Source: Eledone cirrhosa
Lineage: Eukaryota
Assembly: GCA_964016885.1 (NCBI GenBank)
Contig: OZ024755.1
Coordinates: 34,720,001 to 34,784,000 of the forward strand
Reading direction: 5' to 3'
DNA length: 64,000 nt
Below, piece by piece: positions 14,880 to 55,235 of this stretch; within the stretch, counting starts at the first letter, position 1, and the number at the start of each line of letters is the position of its first letter. A program made the translations under genes and the position numbers. The notes below the pieces were generated by a model. It did no database searches and had not been told where the DNA came from. It saw nothing but the letters and a program-made list of their open reading frames with translations.

Positions 14880-16080
14880 ATAATAATGAAATTATTGTGT
14901 ACAGTGCTCAGGTGCACTACAACTCGTCAAAGGTGCATGTATAGTACATAGAATAATATACAAATGTCAGGGAAGTGGATAGTGTATGAGTCATGATATA
15001 CATGTGCGTATGTGTATGGAGGGGGAACATAAGTGTTGGCGAATCTCGGGAAGCATGGAAGTTTTAAAGGATGCGGTGTCTCGACAGCTAACAACTGATG
15101 CAGGTAGTTTGTTCCAAGCTTCAGCAACTCTGAGTGTGAAAAAATGTTTCCGAAAGTCATGGGAACTGTACCGTTTTCTGACTTTGTGGGCATGTCCATG
15201 GGTGTTAGACACATGGAAATCAAAAAGGTACTCAGGGTCGTCGTTGGCAAGATGGTTAACAATTTTGTGGGTGTTTACCAAGTCAGTTGCCAGGCGTCGG
15301 AGATTCAATGTATCCATGCCCAGGGAAGCATGGCGTTCAGAGTATGGTAGATGCCTGATGGAGGTTATTCGCTTGGTTGCACATCTCTGAACAGTTTCCA
15401 GGCGGTCAATGTTCTGAGCAAGATCGGGGTTCCAGACTGGTGATGCAAATTCTAAGTGTGGCCGCACCATAGCCATCTACAGCCTTAAATAGATAGCTAG
15501 AGAGCGGCTGACAAAGGTCTTGCTGAGTGATGCTAAGACACCCTCAGCCCTCTTGACAATTTTAGAGACGTGCTTCGTCCAACGCAAATCGCTGCTGACC
15601 GTAATGCCCAGGTCACGTTCACAAGAAAACTTCTTGATATTAGTGCTGTGGAGGGAGTATGTGGACGCTGGGTTTTTACTCCCAAAATGCATGGTGGTGC
15701 ACTTGTCCACAGCTAGCTTGAGTTGCCAGTCTGAGATCCATTGTTGCATTGTGTCCAGATCAGACTGCAAGCAAGATCTATAGTGTTCAGGATCTGTCCT
15801 TTTTATCTCAAGGTACAGCTTGATGTCATCTGCGTACTTTAGTATTGTGGCATTCTTTAAGTTGGCATCTATGTCATTAATATATGCCACAAACAAAAGG
15901 GGGCCAAGAACAGATCTCTGTGGTATACCAGATGACATCTCATATGGTGAGGGATGCTGTCCTAGAACCGTGACTACCTCTCTTCGACTGAGAATGAAGG
16001 ACTTCAACCAGTTAAAAAGATCATCCTTCACACCCATTGCAGAGAGTTTTGCCATAAGCCTTTTGTGTGGCACAGAATTG
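14880..16080 (-). mobile_element. CR1/L2-group LINE, 3' end with RT remnant
   Basis: SGIPQRSVLGPLLFVAYIND, KYADDIK, ERDLGITV, VRPHLEFASPVWNP, RKHFFTLRV..WNKLP; simple-repeat tail. Confidence 0.92.
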
Positions 16081-16399
16081 AAAGCTTATATATATGTATA
16101 TATATATATATGTATAAATATGTATTGTGAAGGCGTGTGGTTGAGTGGTTAGAGAATTGGATTCGCAATCGTAAGGTTGTGAGTTCGATTCCTGGACAGG
16201 GTGATGCATTATGTCCTTGAGCAAGACACTTTATTTCACGTTGCTCCTTCTACCTGGTGTTGCGACCCATAGATAGTATTAGCAAGTGGAAAGACCAACG
16301 GAAACATTGTTTCGTCGGTCCGATTTGACGAAAGTCGATCGTTCCTTAAAATATATGTATATATATGTATGTATACATATATGTATGTATACATATATG

Positions 16400-16974: not shown

Positions 16975-17348
16975 CGGCGATGAATTAGTTTTGCGAGGTT
17001 TTTGATATGAAATCGTGTGTCGAAACAAATAGTGTTATACTTGGGGAGGGTCATATTTGTGTAATAATATTGGCGTAAGCATACAATGCAATGGGAGGAA
17101 ACATAATAGAACCACTGACGATGTTGCAGATGTGCAACGAAAGAACTTTGATAGACTATATATATGTGTTTGTGTCTATATTGTATCTGTATTTTTGACC
17201 GTTGGTCAGTCAGTCGTAACATTAAGGACCGAATAAATTAAATTAACCGATATAAAAGACACAGAAGCGAAAACTAACCAAACAGTGAGTGTGTTCTGTT
17301 ATTAATTCTGGCAATATTATTACATAAATATGACCCTCCCCCAGATAT
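16975..17348. mobile_element. PLE end with inverted termini (17036-17072 / 17312-17348) and HHR 17106-17159 (+)
   Basis: acca-CTGACGA-tgttgcagatgtgcaac-GAAA-gaac-TT-tgat; same family as 1546-1860. Confidence 0.78.
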
Positions 17349-17387
17349 ATATATATATATGTATATTCATATTATATATATATACAC

Positions 17388-17917
17388 TTAAAATTTGCAT
17401 CACCAGTCTGGAACCCCTATCTTGCTCAGGACATTGACCGCCTGGAAACTGTTCAGAGACGTGCAACCAAGCGAATACCCTCCATCAGACACCTACCATA
17501 CTCTGAGCGCCTTGCTTCCCTGGGCATGGATTCATTGAAGCTCCGACGCCTGGCAACTGACTTAGTAAACACCCACAAAATTGTTAACCATGTTGCCAAC
17601 AACAACCCTGAGTGCCTTTTTGATTTCCATGTGTCTAACACACGTGGACATGCCCACAAAGTAAGAAAACAGCACAGTTCCGATGACTTTCGGAAACATT
17701 TTTTCACGCTCAGAGTTGCTGATGCATTGGAACAAACTGCCTGCATCAGTTGTTAGCTGTCGAGACACTGCATCCTTTAAGGCCTCCATGCTTCCCGAGA
17801 TCCGCCAACAGAACAGCTAACACATACACACATGTACTTCCCTGACTTTGTGTATTACTCTATGTACTATATTGACGAGTTGTAGTGCACCTGAGCACTT
17901 TACACAATAATTTCATT

Positions 17918-24839: not shown

Positions 24840-26860
24840 CCACTGAAAAAGGGACCATCTCTTTCGCAAAGGTGGCTTGCAACGTAGAAACAGACCTGAT
24901 CACAGAGGAGGAGATGGCGGTCGCAAGACACATGGTAACCAGAACCGAATATTCAGTATCCTTGAAAACCCCTAACCGACTTCCTGGAGGAACAAGAGCG
25001 ACGCACAGTGTCGTACCGCATGATTGCCATGAAATCGCATCGTGTGGAGAGCTGAACACATCGTTCCAGGTGCGCAAAGCTTACAGAGAACGGACTAGCG
25101 AATTAGTTAAGCGTGCGTTGACGGGTGCAATCGTCAACAACAGGTGGTGGTTTACCCTGAAAAGGGCTATTAGAGTAGAATCGATAAGGTTTAGCAAAGG
25201 AGTAGTGATAGAGGAAAATAGAGTAGAGAGAGAGCTAGTTAGAAAGCTAGAAGAGGCGTTTAAGACAGGCATCGCAACCGACGTGCTTACGACGATATTG
25301 GCACTCGACCAATTCTTCAACGCAAAGCATGAAGGATGCGTTGTCAGAGCTAGAGCGCGTGCTCTGAGACACGGGGGCACAAAAGTCGTTCAATGGGCCC
25401 AGGTGGTGGAGGTGCGATGTGGCAACAAATCCACAATTCGGTCTTTGCCTGATTAAAACGGGCGCATGTTGCTCGAAGCCCAGCAGATGGGTGCGGCTTT
25501 TCAGCAGCACTTTGCTCAATTGTTCGGGAGCGGCGGCGGGCCGGATCGGAGTATGGACTTCGGTGCATACCACTGACCGCAGTGCAGTGCTGCGAAAAGC
25601 TGATAACAGCAGGTGAAATATGGGAAGCAATGTCTGGCTGCACGAGGGGTAAATCGCCAGGTTTGGATGGTCTGCCCTACGAGCTTTATGCATATATGCC
25701 AGACTTGTTCGGCGACCTCTTGGCAGATGTCTACTGCAACTGGCAGCAGAACGGGAGCATTCCCAGTTTTGTGAGCTGGGGAGCGGTGGCGCTGCTGAGA
25801 AAAGACCCGAACAAAGGGGACGTTATAGACAACTTCAGGCCCATAACTCTGCTAAATGCAGGGTTCAAGATTTTGGCCAAGGTGTTAGCAAAGAGATTGG
25901 CGTTTGTCGTCGGTGATCTGATGGGAGAGACGCAGACATACATCATTCTGGACAGATCCATCCACGACAACCTCCATCTCATGCGATACATTATAGAGAG
26001 GGTGGTTAAGGAACCTTGCATGGATGGGGCCCTGATCTACTTGGATCAATCTAAAGCATTTCATAGGGTCGACCATCGGTACCTGGCTGCGGTCCTCAAG
26101 GTGGCTGGCTTCGGGCCCATTTTTAGGGGCTGGATCGCTGCGATGCACAGCGACATCTGCTCGATTGTGAGGGTGAATGGTCACCTGTCGCAGCCGATCA
26201 GCATGCGTTCGGTCCGCCAAGGTTGTCCCCACGCGAACTGCGATGCGGGAGATCTGTGTCAGCTTGTAGTGGTGATGAGCACCAAACATGTCCAGATGCT
26301 CGGCACCGCTCTCAAGGAATACGAAGCGGTGACAGGAGGAAAGATAAACCAACGTTCTCGAGGAGACCCTGGGTGTCGAAGATGATCAGCTGTTTGCTCT
26401 CTTCAAGAGAACTTTCAGCTCGGGGCCTATGGACAACTTCCAGAAATCCCTGGCCTGGCAGTGCTACCAGGGAGCGTTGCCGGTTCAGGATAAGCTGTAG
26501 AGGCACTGAGGCGCTGTCAGCCAAGCCTGTCCGAGATGTGCACAGGGCAACGAATCCGTCCTGCATGCACTCGTTCAGTGCCCGAGGATTGCTGACTTGT
26601 GGAGCTACGTCGAACAGTTGCTGTTGCATGTAGGACGGATCCGGTTATCGACTGAGTCCATTGTCCAGATAGCTCCGCCATCCTCCTTTAAAGAGGAGGA
26701 AGAGCAGGTAGTTTTCATCTGCCTGGTGGCCATGGCGAAAGAGATTGTGTGGTGGACAAGGTTGAAAGGATTGAAGACGGACACTTTACTCTCTGGCCAA
26801 TCCCTGATTAACTTTTTCAAGTTTCACTTGAAGAGGAAAATCAGGGTGGGGAGGCAAGTG
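24840..26860 (+). mobile_element. Decayed L1/Tx1-clade LINE (RT and C-terminal fragments)
   Basis: GKSPGLDGLPYELY, NFRPITLLNAGFKILAKVLAKRL, DQSKAFHRVDH, SVRQGCP; stops and internal deletions; GC-rich island. Confidence 0.9.
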
Positions 26861-27349
26861 CTGTTTGCATTTCATCCTTACGGGGCCGATAAAATAAAGT
26901 ACCAGTAATGTACTGAGGTTGGCTTAAATCAGAAACCATTATACAGAAATGAAGAGAAGTCTTCTAAAAATATTGTTTATGTTGTTCTAAATCTCCAACT
27001 TCAAAAAGTAAAAGTGCAACAACCCCCTTTCGTCACAAATGACCATGGGATTTGCATCTAGAAAGTTCCCCTCCAAGGCCTTAGGCAAGGTTGTTTCTGG
27101 AATATCAGCAGTCACCCATGTGTACTAGTCTCCCCTCTCCACGCCACCGATGTTGTCCAAGGGAAAGAAAGGCCAATAAAGCTTGGCACCAGTGATGCTG
27201 GAACTCATTTCTACAGCTGAATGAACTGGAGCAATATGATATAAAGTGTCATTGTCAAGGGCACAACACATCACCCAGTGTGGAAATCAAACTCACAACC
27301 TCACAGTTGTAAGCCAAATGCTCTAACCACTAACTGATGTACCTTCACA

Positions 27350-41295: not shown

Positions 41296-42267
41296 CTTGT
41301 CCCCTGGTACCCCCCTGAAATAAGGCCTTTGCTCACAAGGCTTGGTTTGACACAATGCTATGGTAAAAATACTTGCCCAAGGTGACATGCACTGGAATTA
41401 AACCTAGAATATCATGATTTATGAAACAAATTTATTAACCTCTCAGCTATGTCTACATCAGGTATTTATAGCATTTATACAACAGAATTTTGCAAGTCAT
41501 TTTGCTGATTAAACGAGTTTAAATAATTAATTGGTGTTATTTTAGATAAACTCTGTGATTAAATCAGTCAATAGACGTTAGTTAACAAAATAAATAAATA
41601 ATCATTGAATGTCAACAGATCTAAACTTGTGATATTCAATTCTAGAAACAGCTAATTTATAAAAGAAAACTTTCTAATGAAAGTCAATAAACTTTCTTTA
41701 AGCAGCCACATAAACCATCTTTGTTAATATATTGGTTTTTAACTTGTGTAGAAATAAGAGGTAGGATTTGAATTTGCAACATGAAGAAATATATCAGTGT
41801 ATTTCTTGGTGTATCTTTGCTATGTGTATCCTGGCTTTTAGAATATGTTCACTGCATTCCTGCGTGTCATAAGAGGTAACTAAAAGGTCTGGTGTCAAGA
41901 AGGACATCTTGGAGGTTTGGCAGAAAAATATTCATTTGTTTGATGAACTGAGAATCTAAGTTGTAAATTAACAAGGAAGTAAGGCACTCTGTCTTTACAA
42001 CAACAAGTGTTCCAGTTGATCTCATCAACAGAACAGCCTGCTCCTGAAATATATCAGTGTATTTCTTGGTGTATCTTTGCTATGTGTATCCTGGCTTTTA
42101 GAATATGTTCACTGCATTCCTGCGTGTCATAAGAGGTGACTAAAAGGTATGGTGTCAAGAAGGACATCTTGCTGTAAAACATTGTCAGAAAACACTCTGT
42201 CCAACCCATACCAACATAAAAAAGTGGACATAAAAACGATGAGGGTGATGATGATGATAATGATGAT

Positions 42268-42567
42268 TGTTGTGTCTACATTAATGCTTCTCTCCTATTC
42301 TCACCTATCCATATTTATTGCCTTTCTTTCATTACGCGTAACACGTTCCAGCCACTTATTGGCCACTCATCGGCCAATCGCACACACTCTTCATATTGAT
42401 TGGTTCACCCGTCCAATAAGACCTAGGACTCAATGTGCGCGCACACGCATGTGAACGTGACACTATACTCTGTACATCGCGCTCTGCTTGTGGCTCCATG
42501 CCATCCTGTTTAATACAACTTCCTACCGTCTTTACACTTGTTCTTACCTGGGAATCCGTACATAACA
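42268..42567 (+). mobile_element. 5' LTR of a Ty3/Gypsy element
   Basis: TGTTGTGT...ACATAACA inverted termini, then PBS-like TGGCATCGCC at 42570 and gag. Confidence 0.75.
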
Positions 42568-42631
42568 ATTGGCATCGCCGTGGTTACCTGCTACTTTTTT
42601 CACAAATTAGATCATTTTCTGAAAAATCAGT

Positions 42632-43829
42632 ATGAATCAACCCCCCTTGAATTACTTCTGGGTTGATGAATTCGCCCGACCGACCACGCAGAAATGGACA
42701 TCGTGGAGGAAGGAATTGTTTAATTACTTCAGCCTTCTTCTGGTGTTCAAGCCATCCATTGCGCTGACAGACGACTCCAAATTAACCTTAATGCGCCATT
42801 ATCTTGGTGAAGCCAGTCGCCAGGAGTTCGACTGCCACAATTTCAAGAATGTGGATGCAGCTATTTACGAACTCGATTGCCTGTGGGGGGCAACACAAAA
42901 CGTTTTCTTCACGAGGCATCAATCCAGTCGCCTTCAACAAGACCGCTGTGAGTCGGCTGATAGTTTTATCTGAAAACTGCGCAAAAGGTTACCGAATGTG
43001 AATACAAAAGTCTAACTAAGTCCAAAATTAAAGACGCTATGTTAATACAGCAACTAATCTCCGGCATTGAAAGCGGTAGTACACGAGAGGCGCTTTTAAA
43101 CGAGGATTCACGCACCTTATCTTTCGACAAAGCCTGTAATATAGTTCGCTGCAAAGAAAGTATTAAGTCTCAAGTGAAGACTTTCAAACAAGAAGAACAG
43201 CATAACATTGATAAGGTTGCTCTAGAGCAAAGTAAAATTTCAATGCAATCCAACAGCAAATGTTTCCGCTGTGGGAATCCTGGTCATAAGGCGACCTTTC
43301 CCCAATGCCCCGCCAGAAATTCAATTTGTTGGAACTGTGGGAAGAGGGGTCATTTTGCCAAGTGCTGGCATAGCAAAACAGTTCACCGTATTGAAGAAGC
43401 AATAGAAACCGAAAACGATGTTACAATATATTCAATCATCAGTCAGCTTACTGCCGAGAATGATCATGAGCCTAAGCTTCCTAAAGCCGATTGTCGGCAC
43501 GTTAGTCGGCTGATGGTAAAAATGCCATGTTATTGATGGAGCTCGATTCAGCATCTCCAATTACCATAGCCCCTGAAACTTTTTATCAGTCACACTTCAG
43601 TCAGTCGCCTTTACTTCGTACCGCCCACAAGTTCTTGAGCTATTCTGATGACTCCATCGGCATTCGCAGATTTTTCTTTGCCAACATTCAAGTAGAAATG
43701 AATTCTGCCTATAAGATTGCAGTTTATGTTGGCCCAAGACAATGTAAACCGTTGTTAGGTCGTAATGCCAGGGTCCCACTTAGAATCTCGCCTAAGCTAG
43801 AGAACGTTTCTAACTCTACACCGTTAAAC
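42632..43829 (+). pseudogene. Gypsy gag (two CCHC knuckles) and aspartic protease, disrupted
   Basis: CFRCGNPGH..CPARNSICWNCGKRGHFAKC; MELDSASPITI and PLLGRN protease motifs. Confidence 0.88.
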
Positions 43830-44400
43830 ATGCCTCCAAATAAGAAAATACAACATAACACTTTTTATTATTATAGAATTGGCAGCATCGGTAGAGTGTC
43901 AGACACCATGCTTTACAGCCCTTGCCATTCTGAGTTCAAATCCCGCTGAGGTTAACTTTGCCGTTCATCCTTACGGGGTCGATGAAGTACCAGTAATGCT
44001 CTGGATTATTGCCTTGTGCCAAAGTAGAAACAATTATTATATGAAAGATTTAATGGAAGAGATGAAACTTAATGGCCATAATTTCCCTAATGGTTTAACA
44101 GATGTGACTATTGCTGGCCCCAAATGGAAGCTGCTGACGGCCAACGAAAATTACCCTTATAAGAAAATGTATCGTGAAGTTAAAGAAAATTCACGTAAAA
44201 AGAATAACAACACCAACAATAAGAAAAAGGATTCGCGTATGGATTGTACGGGGCAGTTGATTTCTAACCATTGTGAATCCCTCAACGAAATTGCTAAACA
44301 ATATGCTGAACAAGAACAAGATATTACCTCAAAATGGCCGCATAATACTGATATATTATATGAAAAGTTTTACTTACTGAATTTCTAGATACTGTGTTTT
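43830..44400 (+). pseudogene. mael: Intronless maelstrom-like fragment (HMG box and start of MAEL domain) interrupted by a SINE
   Basis: Removing the SINE gives MPPNKKIQHNTFYYYMKDLMEEMKLNGHNFPNGLTDVTIAGPKWKLLTANENYPYKKM..RMDCTGQLIS..WP..EKFYLLNF*ILC; recognised from memory of Maelstrom N-termini. Confidence 0.7.
43876..44034 (+). mobile_element. SINE family A inserted in mael fragment, TSD ATTATTATA
   Basis: TSD at 43867-43875 and 44033-44041. Confidence 0.85.
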
Positions 44401-44519
44401 CTATGTAGACGCAAATACGCTTATGTGAGAAAGTATCCGTCTACGTACTTTTTAGTATATGCGTGTAGTTGAGTGTGTGTATGTTTACGTTCTGGATATT
44501 TATATTTTTATATATATAT

Positions 44520-44856
44520 GGAGGTACATGGCTTAGTGGTTAGAGCATTGGCCTTGCAATCGAAAGGTTGTGAGTTCAATTCTCAGACCGGGTAATGTGT
44601 TGTTTCCTTGAGCAAGATACTTTATTTCACATTGCTCCAGTTTACTCAGCTGTAGAAATGAGATGATATGGGCTGGGGTCCCTATCATTCCACTGCAACG
44701 TGGTCGTGGAGGTGCCACGGCAAAAAAGCACCCAGCACTCACTGTAAATGAGGTTGGTGTTAGGAAGGGCATCCAGCTGTAGAAATCAAGCCAGAATCAG
44801 TTCCCGTCCCACCCTTGCAAGCAGGGAAAAAGCGAACGTAAAATGAAATGATGATG
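44520..44856 (+). mobile_element. Full-length SINE family B
   Basis: tRNA head through RTE-like tail and (GAT)n. Confidence 0.88.
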
Positions 44857-44979
44857 ATATATATATATATATATTTTTTTTCCCCTTTTTCCTTTTCACC
44901 CGTTTTTTTCAGCCTCACTTTCATATTTCCTAAATTTTGTTTTCAAATCCATATTTAATAAATACACCATGTTTTTTTA

Positions 44980-45040
44980 TTCATTCTGACGACTGAAGAC
45001 AGACACAACATTTGTCTTCAAGAAACCACTGGTAAATGAA
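44980..45040 (+). ncRNA. Type I HHR
   Basis: ttcatt-CTGACGA-ctgaagacaga..tttgtcttcaa-GAAA-ccactgg-TA-aatgaa; GUA site. Confidence 0.88.
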
Positions 45041-46244
45041 ATAATTACTTTATGTTGTTTATTACATAACTAATAAACTCTGTAGTTCTGTAGTCTACAT
45101 AGAGCACTCTTTTTCCCTGTACCTTTCTGACGGAAATACTTCACATATATATATATATATATCATTATCATCACCGTTTTATGTCCATGTTTCCATGCTA
45201 GCATGGGTTAGACAGGTTGTCCTGTTGTGGACAATGCCAGTTCAGGTGACCTTGTCTTGCTTGTACAGGAATTGATTTTGGCTTGATTTGGTAAGGATGT
45301 TGGACTTATGATCATAATGTCGTGGGTTTGATTCCAGGGCTGGGTTGTGTGTTGTGTTCTTGAGCAAAACACTTCATTTCACATTGCTCCAGTATACTCA
45401 GTGGAGGTGTGTGGCCTAGTGGTAAGGGTGTTGGACTTATGATCATAATGTCGTGGGTTTGATTCCTGGGCTGAGTTGTGTGTTGTGTTCTTGAGCAAAA
45501 CACTTCATTTCACATTGCTCCAGTTTACTCAGCTGTAAATGAGTACCAGCAATAGCTGGGAGTTTAACCCTGCGATGGACTGGCATCCTGTCCAGGGGCG
45601 AGTCTTGTGCTCTCAGTTGCCTCCCGCCATGAAGCCGAGATAGGCACCAGCCTAATGAGCCTTCTAGCTTAAGACAAACTTTAGATCTTTAGATATTAGA
45701 AATATGGAACAGAAATGGTTAAAGCTCATCATAGAATATTTTGTCAGAAAAATAAAAGAAACATGACAAGATAGTCAGAAATAAAACACCTTTGATTATA
45801 AGTTTGCACAATCAATGTTGACCTAGGTCTAACTGATAGTAGTAACCTATAACAACTCAGCTGGTAGCTCGAAACATATCCATTTGGCCACTATAACACC
45901 TCCTTATGTACTTCTGTCAGAGAAGACATTTATAAGCTTATTATAAACATGACATACCTTCGTCTACATAGATATATCTATAACATGGAAATATATAGCT
46001 ATTCTGATCTTATGTTGAAGGTTAAATAGAAATGGCACAGCATTCATCTCAATTTTCATCAGTACTAGCTTTAATATGGCATATTCTAGAATTTTCCATT
46101 ATACCAACTATTTGTTTTAGCATTTGTTTCTATTGCTATCTTATTTTCACCAACCTCTCTATTTTTCTCTATTGTAACTTATCTCTTATCTATCTATTTA
46201 TCTGTTTAGCTATCTGCATGTCTATCTACATACATATTTTCATC

Positions 46245-52707: not shown

Positions 52708-53316
52708 TTACCCATCTGCCAGATAGTTGAACGTTCGAAAGTATATACTTTCCTTATGAAAATTAACGGCTGAGCAGCCTAATTTGCATATTGAGTGAGT
52801 TAAATCGGTCAGGCATACCGAAAACGATAAATTGAAACAAAATGAAAACGAAATTTCATTTCTCACTCTTAGTATGGCACATCGTTCCTGTGTCAGTGTT
52901 GAACAAAAAGGTGACGTGGTTGCCTTAACACCGTATGGCATAAATTCAGGCTGTTCAGTTTGTTTACAAACGAACAAAGCGACGTTATAATAAGCGCCGC
53001 TAAACTGATACGTGCATATATGTATGTGTACCTGTATGCATATGTATATATATATGTATATATATATATATATATGTGCATGCTACTGTACGTCTGTATA
53101 CATATATGTATGTACGTATACATGCATACTTACATTTAAGTAAGTGCCATACTAAGAGTGAGAAATGAAATTTCGTTTTCATTTTGTTTCAATTTATCGT
53201 TTTCGGTATGCCTGACCGATTTAACTCACTCAATATGCAAATTAGGCTGCTCAGCCGTTAATTTTCATAAGGAAAGTATATACTTTAGAACGTTCAACTA
53301 TCTGGCAGATGGGTAA

Positions 53317-53359
53317 ACGGTGCTGATGATAGCTAACAAGCTTGAAACTAGTACATCGT
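53317..53359 (+). ncRNA. Type I HHR, array unit
   Basis: acggtg-CTGATGA-tagctaacaagctt-GAAA-ctag-TA-catcgt; 6-bp stem I, GUA site. Confidence 0.92.
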
Positions 53360-53790
53360 TCCTGTGTCAGTGTTGAACAAAAAGGTGACGTGGTTGCCTT
53401 AACACCGTATGGCATAAATTCAGGCTGTTCAGTTTGTTTACAAACGAACAAAGCGACGTTATAATAAGCGCCGCTAAACTGATACGTGCATATATGTATG
53501 TGTACCTGTATGCATATGTATATATATATGTATATATATATATATATATGTGCATGCTACTGTACGTCTGTATACATATATGTATGTACGTATACATGCA
53601 TACTTACATTTAAGTAAGTGCCATACTAAGAGTGAGAAATGAAATTTCGTTTTCATTTTGTTTCAATTTATCGTTTTCGGTATGCCTGACCGATTTAACT
53701 CACTCAATATGCAAATTAGGCTGCTCAGCCGTTAATTTTCATAAGGAAAGTATATACTTTCGAACGTTCAACTATCTGGCAGATGGGTAA

Positions 53791-53833
53791 ACGGTGCTGA
53801 TGATAGCTAACAAGCTTGAAACTAGTACATCGT
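53791..53833 (+). ncRNA. Type I HHR, array unit
   Basis: Identical to 53317-53359. Confidence 0.92.
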
Positions 53834-54258
53834 TCCTGTGTCAGTGTTGAACAAAAAGGTGACGTGGTTGCCTTAACACCGTATGGCATAAATTCAGGCT
53901 GTTCAGTTTGTTTACAAACGAACAAAGCGACGTTATAATAAGCGCCGCTAAACTGATACGTGCATATATGTATGTGTACGTGTATGCATATGTATATGTA
54001 TATATATATATATATATGTGCATGCTACTGTACGTCTGTATACATATATGTATGTACGTATACATGCATACTTACATTTAAGTAAGTGCCATACTAAGAG
54101 TGAGAAATGAAATTTCGTTTTCATTTTGTTTCAATTTATCGTTTTCGGTATGCCTGACCGATTTAACTCACTCAATATGCAAATTAGGCTGCTCAGCCGT
54201 TAATTTTCATAAGGAAAGTATATACTTTCGAACGTTCAACTATCTGGCAGATGGGTAA

Positions 54259-54301
54259 ACGGTGCTGATGATAGCTAACAAGCTTGAAACTAGTACATCG
54301 T
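54259..54301 (+). ncRNA. Type I HHR, array unit
   Basis: Identical to 53317-53359. Confidence 0.92.
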
Positions 54302-54732
54302 TCCTGTGTCAGTGTTGAACAAAAAGGTGACGTGGTTGCCTTAACACCGTATGGCATAAATTCAGGCTGTTCAGTTTGTTTACAAACGAACAAAGCGACG
54401 TTATAATAAGCGCCGCTAAACTGATACGTGCATATATGTATGTGTACGTGTATGCATATGTATATATATATGTATATATATATATATATATGTGCATGCT
54501 ACTGTACGTCTGTATACATATATGTATGTACGTATACATGCATACTTACATTTAAGTAAGTGCCATACTAAGAGTGAGAAATGAAATTTCGTTTTCATTT
54601 TGTTTCAATTTATCGTTTTCGGTATGCCTGACCGATTTAACTCACTCAATATGCAAATTAGGCTGCTCAGCCGTTAATTTTCATAAGGAAAGTATATACT
54701 TTCGAACGTTCAACTATCTGGCAGATGGGTAA

Positions 54733-54775
54733 ACGGTGCTGATGATAGCTAACAAGCTTGAAACTAGTACATCGT
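54733..54775 (+). ncRNA. Type I HHR, array unit
   Basis: Identical to 53317-53359. Confidence 0.92.
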
Positions 54776-55139
54776 TCCTGTGTCAGTGTTGAACAAAAAG
54801 GTGACGTGGTTGCCTTAACACCGTATGGCATAAATTCAGGCTGTTCAGTTTGTTTACAAACGAACAAAGCGACGTTATAATAAGCGCCGCTAAACTGATA
54901 CGTGCATATATGTATGTGTACCTGTATGCATATGTATATATATATGTATATATATATATATATATATGTGCATGCTACTGTACGTCTGTATACATATATG
55001 TATGTACGTATACATGCATACTTACATTTAAGTAAGTGCCACACTAAGAGTGAGAAATGAAATTTCGTTTTCATTTTGTTTCAATTTATATATAAATATA
55101 TATAAATATATATATAAATATATATAAATATAGATATAA

Positions 55140-55171
<32 letters not shown>

Positions 55172-55235
55172 ATATAAATATATATATATTTATATATATA
55201 TATATATATAAATATATATATAAATATATATATAA

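Follow-up and report, generated by a model that had tools for sequence, protein, structure and literature searches.

A Decayed Gypsy-Like Element Joined to the 5′ End of a Maelstrom-Like Gene in Eledone cirrhosa

Introduction

How did a fragment that resembles maelstrom (mael), a gene of the piRNA pathway, come to lie in frame behind the protease sequence of a Gypsy-like retrotransposon, and does the resulting chimera do anything? By the account in PMC3504300, the MAEL domain of the fly protein is required for silencing, and loss of the HMG box has milder effects. The TART-A element, which carries a fragment of nxf2, is described as a precedent for piRNA-based anti-silencing (PMC7785250), and captures of aub and piwi are described in Drosophilids, with higher copy number in the capture families and a targeting that fails near 80% identity (PMC13534243).

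We analyzed a 64-kb stretch of DNA (the window; all positions are those of the window), which is AT-rich and full of microsatellites and SINEs, together with contigs from four sequencing runs. Runs X1 and X3 represent one sample of organism A and are DNA-like, whereas X5 represents organism B and is marked "DNA?". Run X4, the kind of which is not on record, is RNA-like by its size and cover (88 million letters, with mael covered and Gypsy not).

Results

The 5′ end of the element is marked by a 300-bp LTR-like segment bounded by TG...CA (42268..42567, + strand), which is single copy in the window. A PBS-like site, recognized from its sequence and starting with TGG, is located 2 nt past the LTR end (42570..42587, +); no host tRNA gene with which it could be compared was found within the 64-kb window. 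Read depth in X1 and X3, taken as a rough guide only, was 127–300 on the LTR-like segment and 28–123 on the internal region, and a higher value on the former is as expected of an LTR. A short way upstream of the LTR there is a 126-bp direct repeat (41786–41911 and 42046–42171, 98% identical), and the LTR start abuts the end of a GAT microsatellite (42200–42267) that is similar to the tails found on other repeats of the window.

The coding part of the element matches two complete Gypsy polyproteins, P0018 and P0019, with E values of about 1e-55 (tblastn), and the match is split over three frames (42632–42973, 42964–43536, and 43506 onward). The first piece of gag (42632..42973, +), which aligned with residues 1–118 of P0018 in tblastn, ends in a stop at 42971–73, where the frame breaks. 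The second piece (42964..43503, +) lies in a frame spanning 42964–43536, matches PF00098 in two stretches (E 4.8e-7), and contains two CCHC zinc knuckles, which we take to be reminiscent of the Mag clade. After a second frame break comes the protease region (43506..43800, +), which is 40% identical to P0018 residues 316–412 and for which the Pfam scan gave no match of its own. Because the intact relatives P0018 and P0019 each have a single gag-pol ORF, with the domain order RVT_1, RT_RNaseH, Integrase_H2C2, rve, the two frame breaks are lesions. An earlier note on this DNA had described a frame open from gag into the mael ATG. This was found to be correct from the protease onward, since the frame 43506–43946 is stop-free and includes the ATG at 43830, but not for gag, on account of the two frameshifts that the relatives lack.

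The kinship of gag and protease with elements that have RT, RNase H, and integrase identifies the element, as judged from its sequence, as a defective Ty3/Gypsy LTR retrotransposon. Neither RT nor integrase was found within the 64-kb window, as the earlier note had reported. Paired LTRs with a target-site duplication were likewise absent, the one LTR-like segment being the only one in the 64 kb, and no 3′ LTR, polypurine tract, or closing duplication was found in the 19.6 kb of the window downstream.

The cargo begins with a 29-nt stretch of host-derived sequence (43801..43829, +) that is likely mael 5′ UTR, followed by mael codons 1–15 (43830..43875, +), of which 14 of 15 residues are identical to P0002, annotated as "protein maelstrom homolog [Argonauta hians]" and, among named proteins, the closest to the cargo. 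The reading resumes behind a SINE with codons ~13–132 (44033..44397, +), which comprise the HMG box and linker, lack one codon near 44102, and are interrupted by a stop at 44386–88. In a HMMER search, the 117 residues after the SINE were 73% identical to P0002 (E 1e-48), in agreement with the Maelstrom identity and HMG box proposed previously. When the 15 HMMER matches of the mael piece were re-scanned with Pfam, PF09011 (HMG_box_2) was present on all 15 and PF13017 on 13. The stop at 44386 aligned with the Gln of F-Q-L-L-C in relatives, which bears out the suggestion that the terminal TAG is plausibly a mutated CAG.

On these similarities, the cargo is the N-terminal part of Maelstrom including the HMG box, or about the front quarter of the gene. 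The MAEL domain (PF13017) is absent from the fragment, and no further mael sequence, the C-terminal region included, was found within the window. The proposal that the fragment extends into the start of the MAEL domain proved marginal: the fragment ends (44397) at residue ~132, and the PF13017 match on P0002 starts two residues later, at residue 134. Other searches were less informative about the fragment. A word-index search of it against longer proteins gave 34 candidates, of which none scored; a PDB search by sequence gave four weak matches (best E 0.55); and an Atlas search returned only generic HMG-box clusters (best score 0.86). When the protease and first mael codons were searched together against longer proteins, 3 of 137 candidates matched, none of them with a Maelstrom or HMG domain in Pfam, and in metagenome contigs the mael locus was found neither with the protein nor with a 21-base pattern.

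The sequence that splits mael (43876..44032) is a SINE-like high-copy repeat with 17 other matches in the window and a read depth of up to millions. It is flanked by a 9-bp duplication (43867–75 and 44033–41), the left copy of which lies within codons 1–15, and the SINE-free joint, 43866 to 44033, is present in the host contigs of all four runs. The SINE was thus inserted after the capture of mael, and the earlier reconstruction, in which the SINE and one copy of the duplication are removed, is confirmed. Today, the protease frame reads through 15 mael codons and then stops inside the SINE; therefore, no HMG box can come from the locus at present.

The junction between Gypsy and host sequence lies between 43800 and 43801, in the protease-RT linker, with both parts in the same orientation. 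Host contigs from X4 and X5 begin to match the window at 43801 (8 letters into the bin), which indicates that the fragment brought along the 29 nt ahead of the mael ATG. The host contig of X4 (2003 nt) has its end 7 nt beyond the junction, such that, if X4 is RNA, the switch point sits at about the 5′ end of the mael transcript. The cover of X4 over the Gypsy part was next to nil, which is not evidence of silence. The host contig of X5 (3184 nt) spans 43801 to 44397 without interruption and has more than 1 kb of additional sequence upstream of 43801. Of the three frames of the 29-nt stretch, only that shared by protease and mael is open; an in-frame join was considered as a mark of selection and rejected, as it arises about 1 time in 3 by chance.

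The host contigs of X1 and X3, like that of X5, have no intron over the captured stretch, and parental mael thus seems to lack one there. The description of the fragment as intronless is accurate and uninformative: because the DNA-like host contigs are themselves continuous over this stretch, a loss of introns cannot show, and there is no exon-exon junction that could prove an RNA intermediate. We therefore rejected the intronless state as proof of an RNA step. A full-length Mael protein of 590 aa (P0017), with a 22-residue N-terminal overhang, is encoded on a 328-kb contig; this protein and the host contigs over the first 132 codons are a hint that most of mael in cephalopods may lie in a single exon.

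Host and window sequence part at 44397, beyond which the contigs of X3, X4, and X5 run on into other sequence. The window enters an unrelated high-copy repeat (44398..44505), which lies directly against the truncated mael and, by depth, is not of the same Gypsy family. The depth of this repeat at 44441–44500 was 5430 and 7310 in X1 and X3 (organism A), compared with about 40 in organism B, and it is possibly a lineage-specific element; no clear second copy was found in the window, nor does it contain a purine tract of at least 9. The sequence after 44397 shows neither a poly(A) tail nor a LINE-type duplication around the mael cargo.

The mael piece differs from host contigs at 13 of 365 (3.6%) and 11 of 246 (4.5%) positions, and the Gypsy piece differs from its deepest sister contigs at 9 of 355 (2.5%) and 13 of 378 (3.4%) positions. 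The similar divergence of the two pieces fits a capture at about the time of insertion. Seven of the nine listed mael differences (about 13 exist in all) are common to the organism B comparison and therefore likely arose in the chimeric copy. Five of the seven are non-synonymous and two synonymous, with a neutral expectation of 0.74–0.82 non-synonymous (P 0.38–0.58). With seven changes this test has little power, and the mael substitutions are compatible with neutral decay, in line with the neutral retrocopy that the earlier note had offered as one reading.

Two mael sequence classes were found in X1 at 44220–44353, with depths of 18 and 7, whereas the Gypsy family has several copies, depth again being a rough guide. 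A third mael class was not seen at 44098–44323; contigs, however, drop rare variants. The presence of only two classes indicates that the chimera has not spread, and a large non-autonomous chimeric family was rejected on the same ground.

A 204-nt contig found in both X1 and X3 is a hint that there may be a second chimeric locus with the same junction. It aligns with 43623–43830, with 19 other letters and 4 gaps, and is unclipped to its last letter; it ends at 43830, exactly 30 letters into the host sequence, which is where a junction contig would be expected to stop in an assembly graph built on 31-letter words. If all differences lie in the Gypsy part, the contig is ~11% diverged, and because this far exceeds the difference of window-like contigs (0–2 per ~140 nt), a second locus is possible. 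Against a second copy, the contig falls one letter below the 31-letter bridging bar, it is as deep as the window-like mael class, the window's own letters are unseen at five protease positions in X1, and a third mael class is missing at 44098–44323. For other Gypsy-mael chimeras with this junction, the contigs offer one diverged sequence as a hint and no sign of amplification.

Discussion

We think it reasonably probable that the locus is a dead chimera of a low-copy Gypsy element, in which the region of RT, RNase H, and integrase was replaced by the 5′ end of host mael, likely via a template switch onto mael mRNA in the course of reverse transcription (an LTR-mediated partial retrocopy). In such a scheme, reverse transcriptase would have copied a co-packaged mael mRNA toward its 5′ end and then switched onto Gypsy RNA in the protease-RT linker, with the enzymes presumably supplied by an intact sister element. 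The 3′ part, consisting of further mael and the 3′ LTR, would have been deleted or displaced afterwards, and the copy would have decayed since then without selection.

The layout resembles that of the LTR-mediated retrocopies of Tan et al. 2016 (PMC5131818): as that study describes them, a piece of host mRNA replaces part of the internal ORF on the same strand, the cargo is partial and 3′-truncated with no poly(A), and older copies bear loss-of-function changes. The chimera differs from the cases described there in that a 3′ LTR was not found and no loss of introns can be demonstrated. Same-strand replacement of the internal ORF is thus evident here, with the 3′ side unseen, but LTR-element sequence is present on one side of the cargo and not on both; the missing 3′ sequence may be a secondary loss. 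Also in favor of LTR-mediated capture, the RNA-like X4 contig ends 7 nt beyond the junction, which fits a run-off of reverse transcriptase at the 5′ end of the mRNA. Against it are the lack of an exon-exon junction and the identity of the 3′ neighbor, which is an unrelated repeat. The template switch proposed in the earlier note is therefore kept as the likeliest origin, but not as a proven one.

In a rival account, a genomic piece of mael, either a duplicate or a repair patch, became attached to a Gypsy copy through an insertion or a deletion, and reverse transcription played no part. The continuity of the captured stretch in the DNA-like host contigs and the absence of a 3′ LTR in the window agree with such an origin, and the in-frame join, at about 1 chance in 3, is no obstacle to it. 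We nevertheless regard it as unlikely: no host sequence upstream of 43801 was copied, although the X5 contig extends more than 1 kb there; the join is close to the end of the X4 contig; and the Gypsy and mael parts are of similar age. In the form of a segmental duplication of a single exon, an alternative that the earlier note had raised, this origin accounts for the one continuous host stretch, but plain duplication is disfavored because host flank is missing from both sides of the piece, the contigs and the window parting at 43801 and 44397. The LINE-like remnants and many SINEs in the window, and a 5′ end of the fragment near the transcript start, could also be reconciled with a processed copy of mael that was made by a LINE and inserted into the Gypsy element, the 3′ end of the copy being lost later together with the Gypsy 3′ half. 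LINE copies are normally 3′-anchored and 5′-truncated. The mael fragment is truncated the opposite way, has neither a poly(A) tail nor a flanking duplication, and would need an extra deletion, which makes this origin highly improbable.

The question of function is distinct from that of origin. As anti-silencing cargo, the chimera would have been favored through antisense piRNAs against mael, as for TART-A with nxf2, or formerly through a Gag-protease-HMG decoy. The cargo derives from a piRNA-pathway gene and retains ~96% identity to the parent gene, more than the ~80% at which the Drosophilid work (PMC13534243) found targeting to be lost, so that it could still target mael if it lay within a piRNA source locus, and the 204-nt contig may represent a second chimeric copy. 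However, there is no sign of amplification: X1 shows two mael classes and several copies of the Gypsy family, whereas the Drosophilid capture families are described as having higher copy numbers (PMC13534243). The mael substitutions look neutral, and the present locus stops in the SINE. In addition, an HMG-only decoy is made less plausible by the report that flies need the MAEL domain and that HMG loss is milder (PMC3504300); the decoy idea of the earlier note is not supported, since the locus cannot make an HMG box today and lacks the domain most important for silencing in flies. We therefore rate an anti-silencing role as quite unlikely. It is similarly doubtful that an octopod Gypsy element captured the mael 5′ end, moved at least one more time as a non-autonomous chimera, and gave rise to copies that yield antisense piRNAs lowering mael; if true, this would mean that the capture of piRNA-pathway genes is not confined to the telomeric elements of Drosophila but extends to a molluscan LTR element.

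The telomeric captures (nxf2 in TART-A, PMC7785250; aub and piwi, PMC13534243) are alike in that a retroelement carries a fragment of a silencing gene highly identical to its parent. They are described as active, multi-copy elements whose antisense piRNAs have been measured and whose captured host regions evolve faster, whereas the chimera described here consists of one, perhaps two, decayed copies of an LTR element. Compared with Maelstrom itself (PF09011 plus PF13017; nearest P0002), the fragment is alike over residues 1–132, lacks the Pfam Maelstrom domain and C-terminal region, and is broken by the SINE and a stop. No capture of mael by an LTR element was found in the literature by title or abstract, in a search of incomplete coverage. 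As a dead retrocopy, the locus is a modest addition, likely a cephalopod case of LTR-mediated gene capture, and it suggests that mael mRNA and this Gypsy family occurred together in one cell type, presumably the germ line.

As for the surroundings, an Rfam scan over 42100–45700 gave sub-threshold matches only, the best being a tRNA-like head in a downstream SINE. Elsewhere in the window, there are three open frames (14994–16085 on the − strand, and 17334–17753 and 26510–26905 on the + strand) that we presume to be remnants of LINE reverse transcriptases, and a tandem array at 52879–55214 consists of about five 474-bp units, most of which are 97–100% alike.
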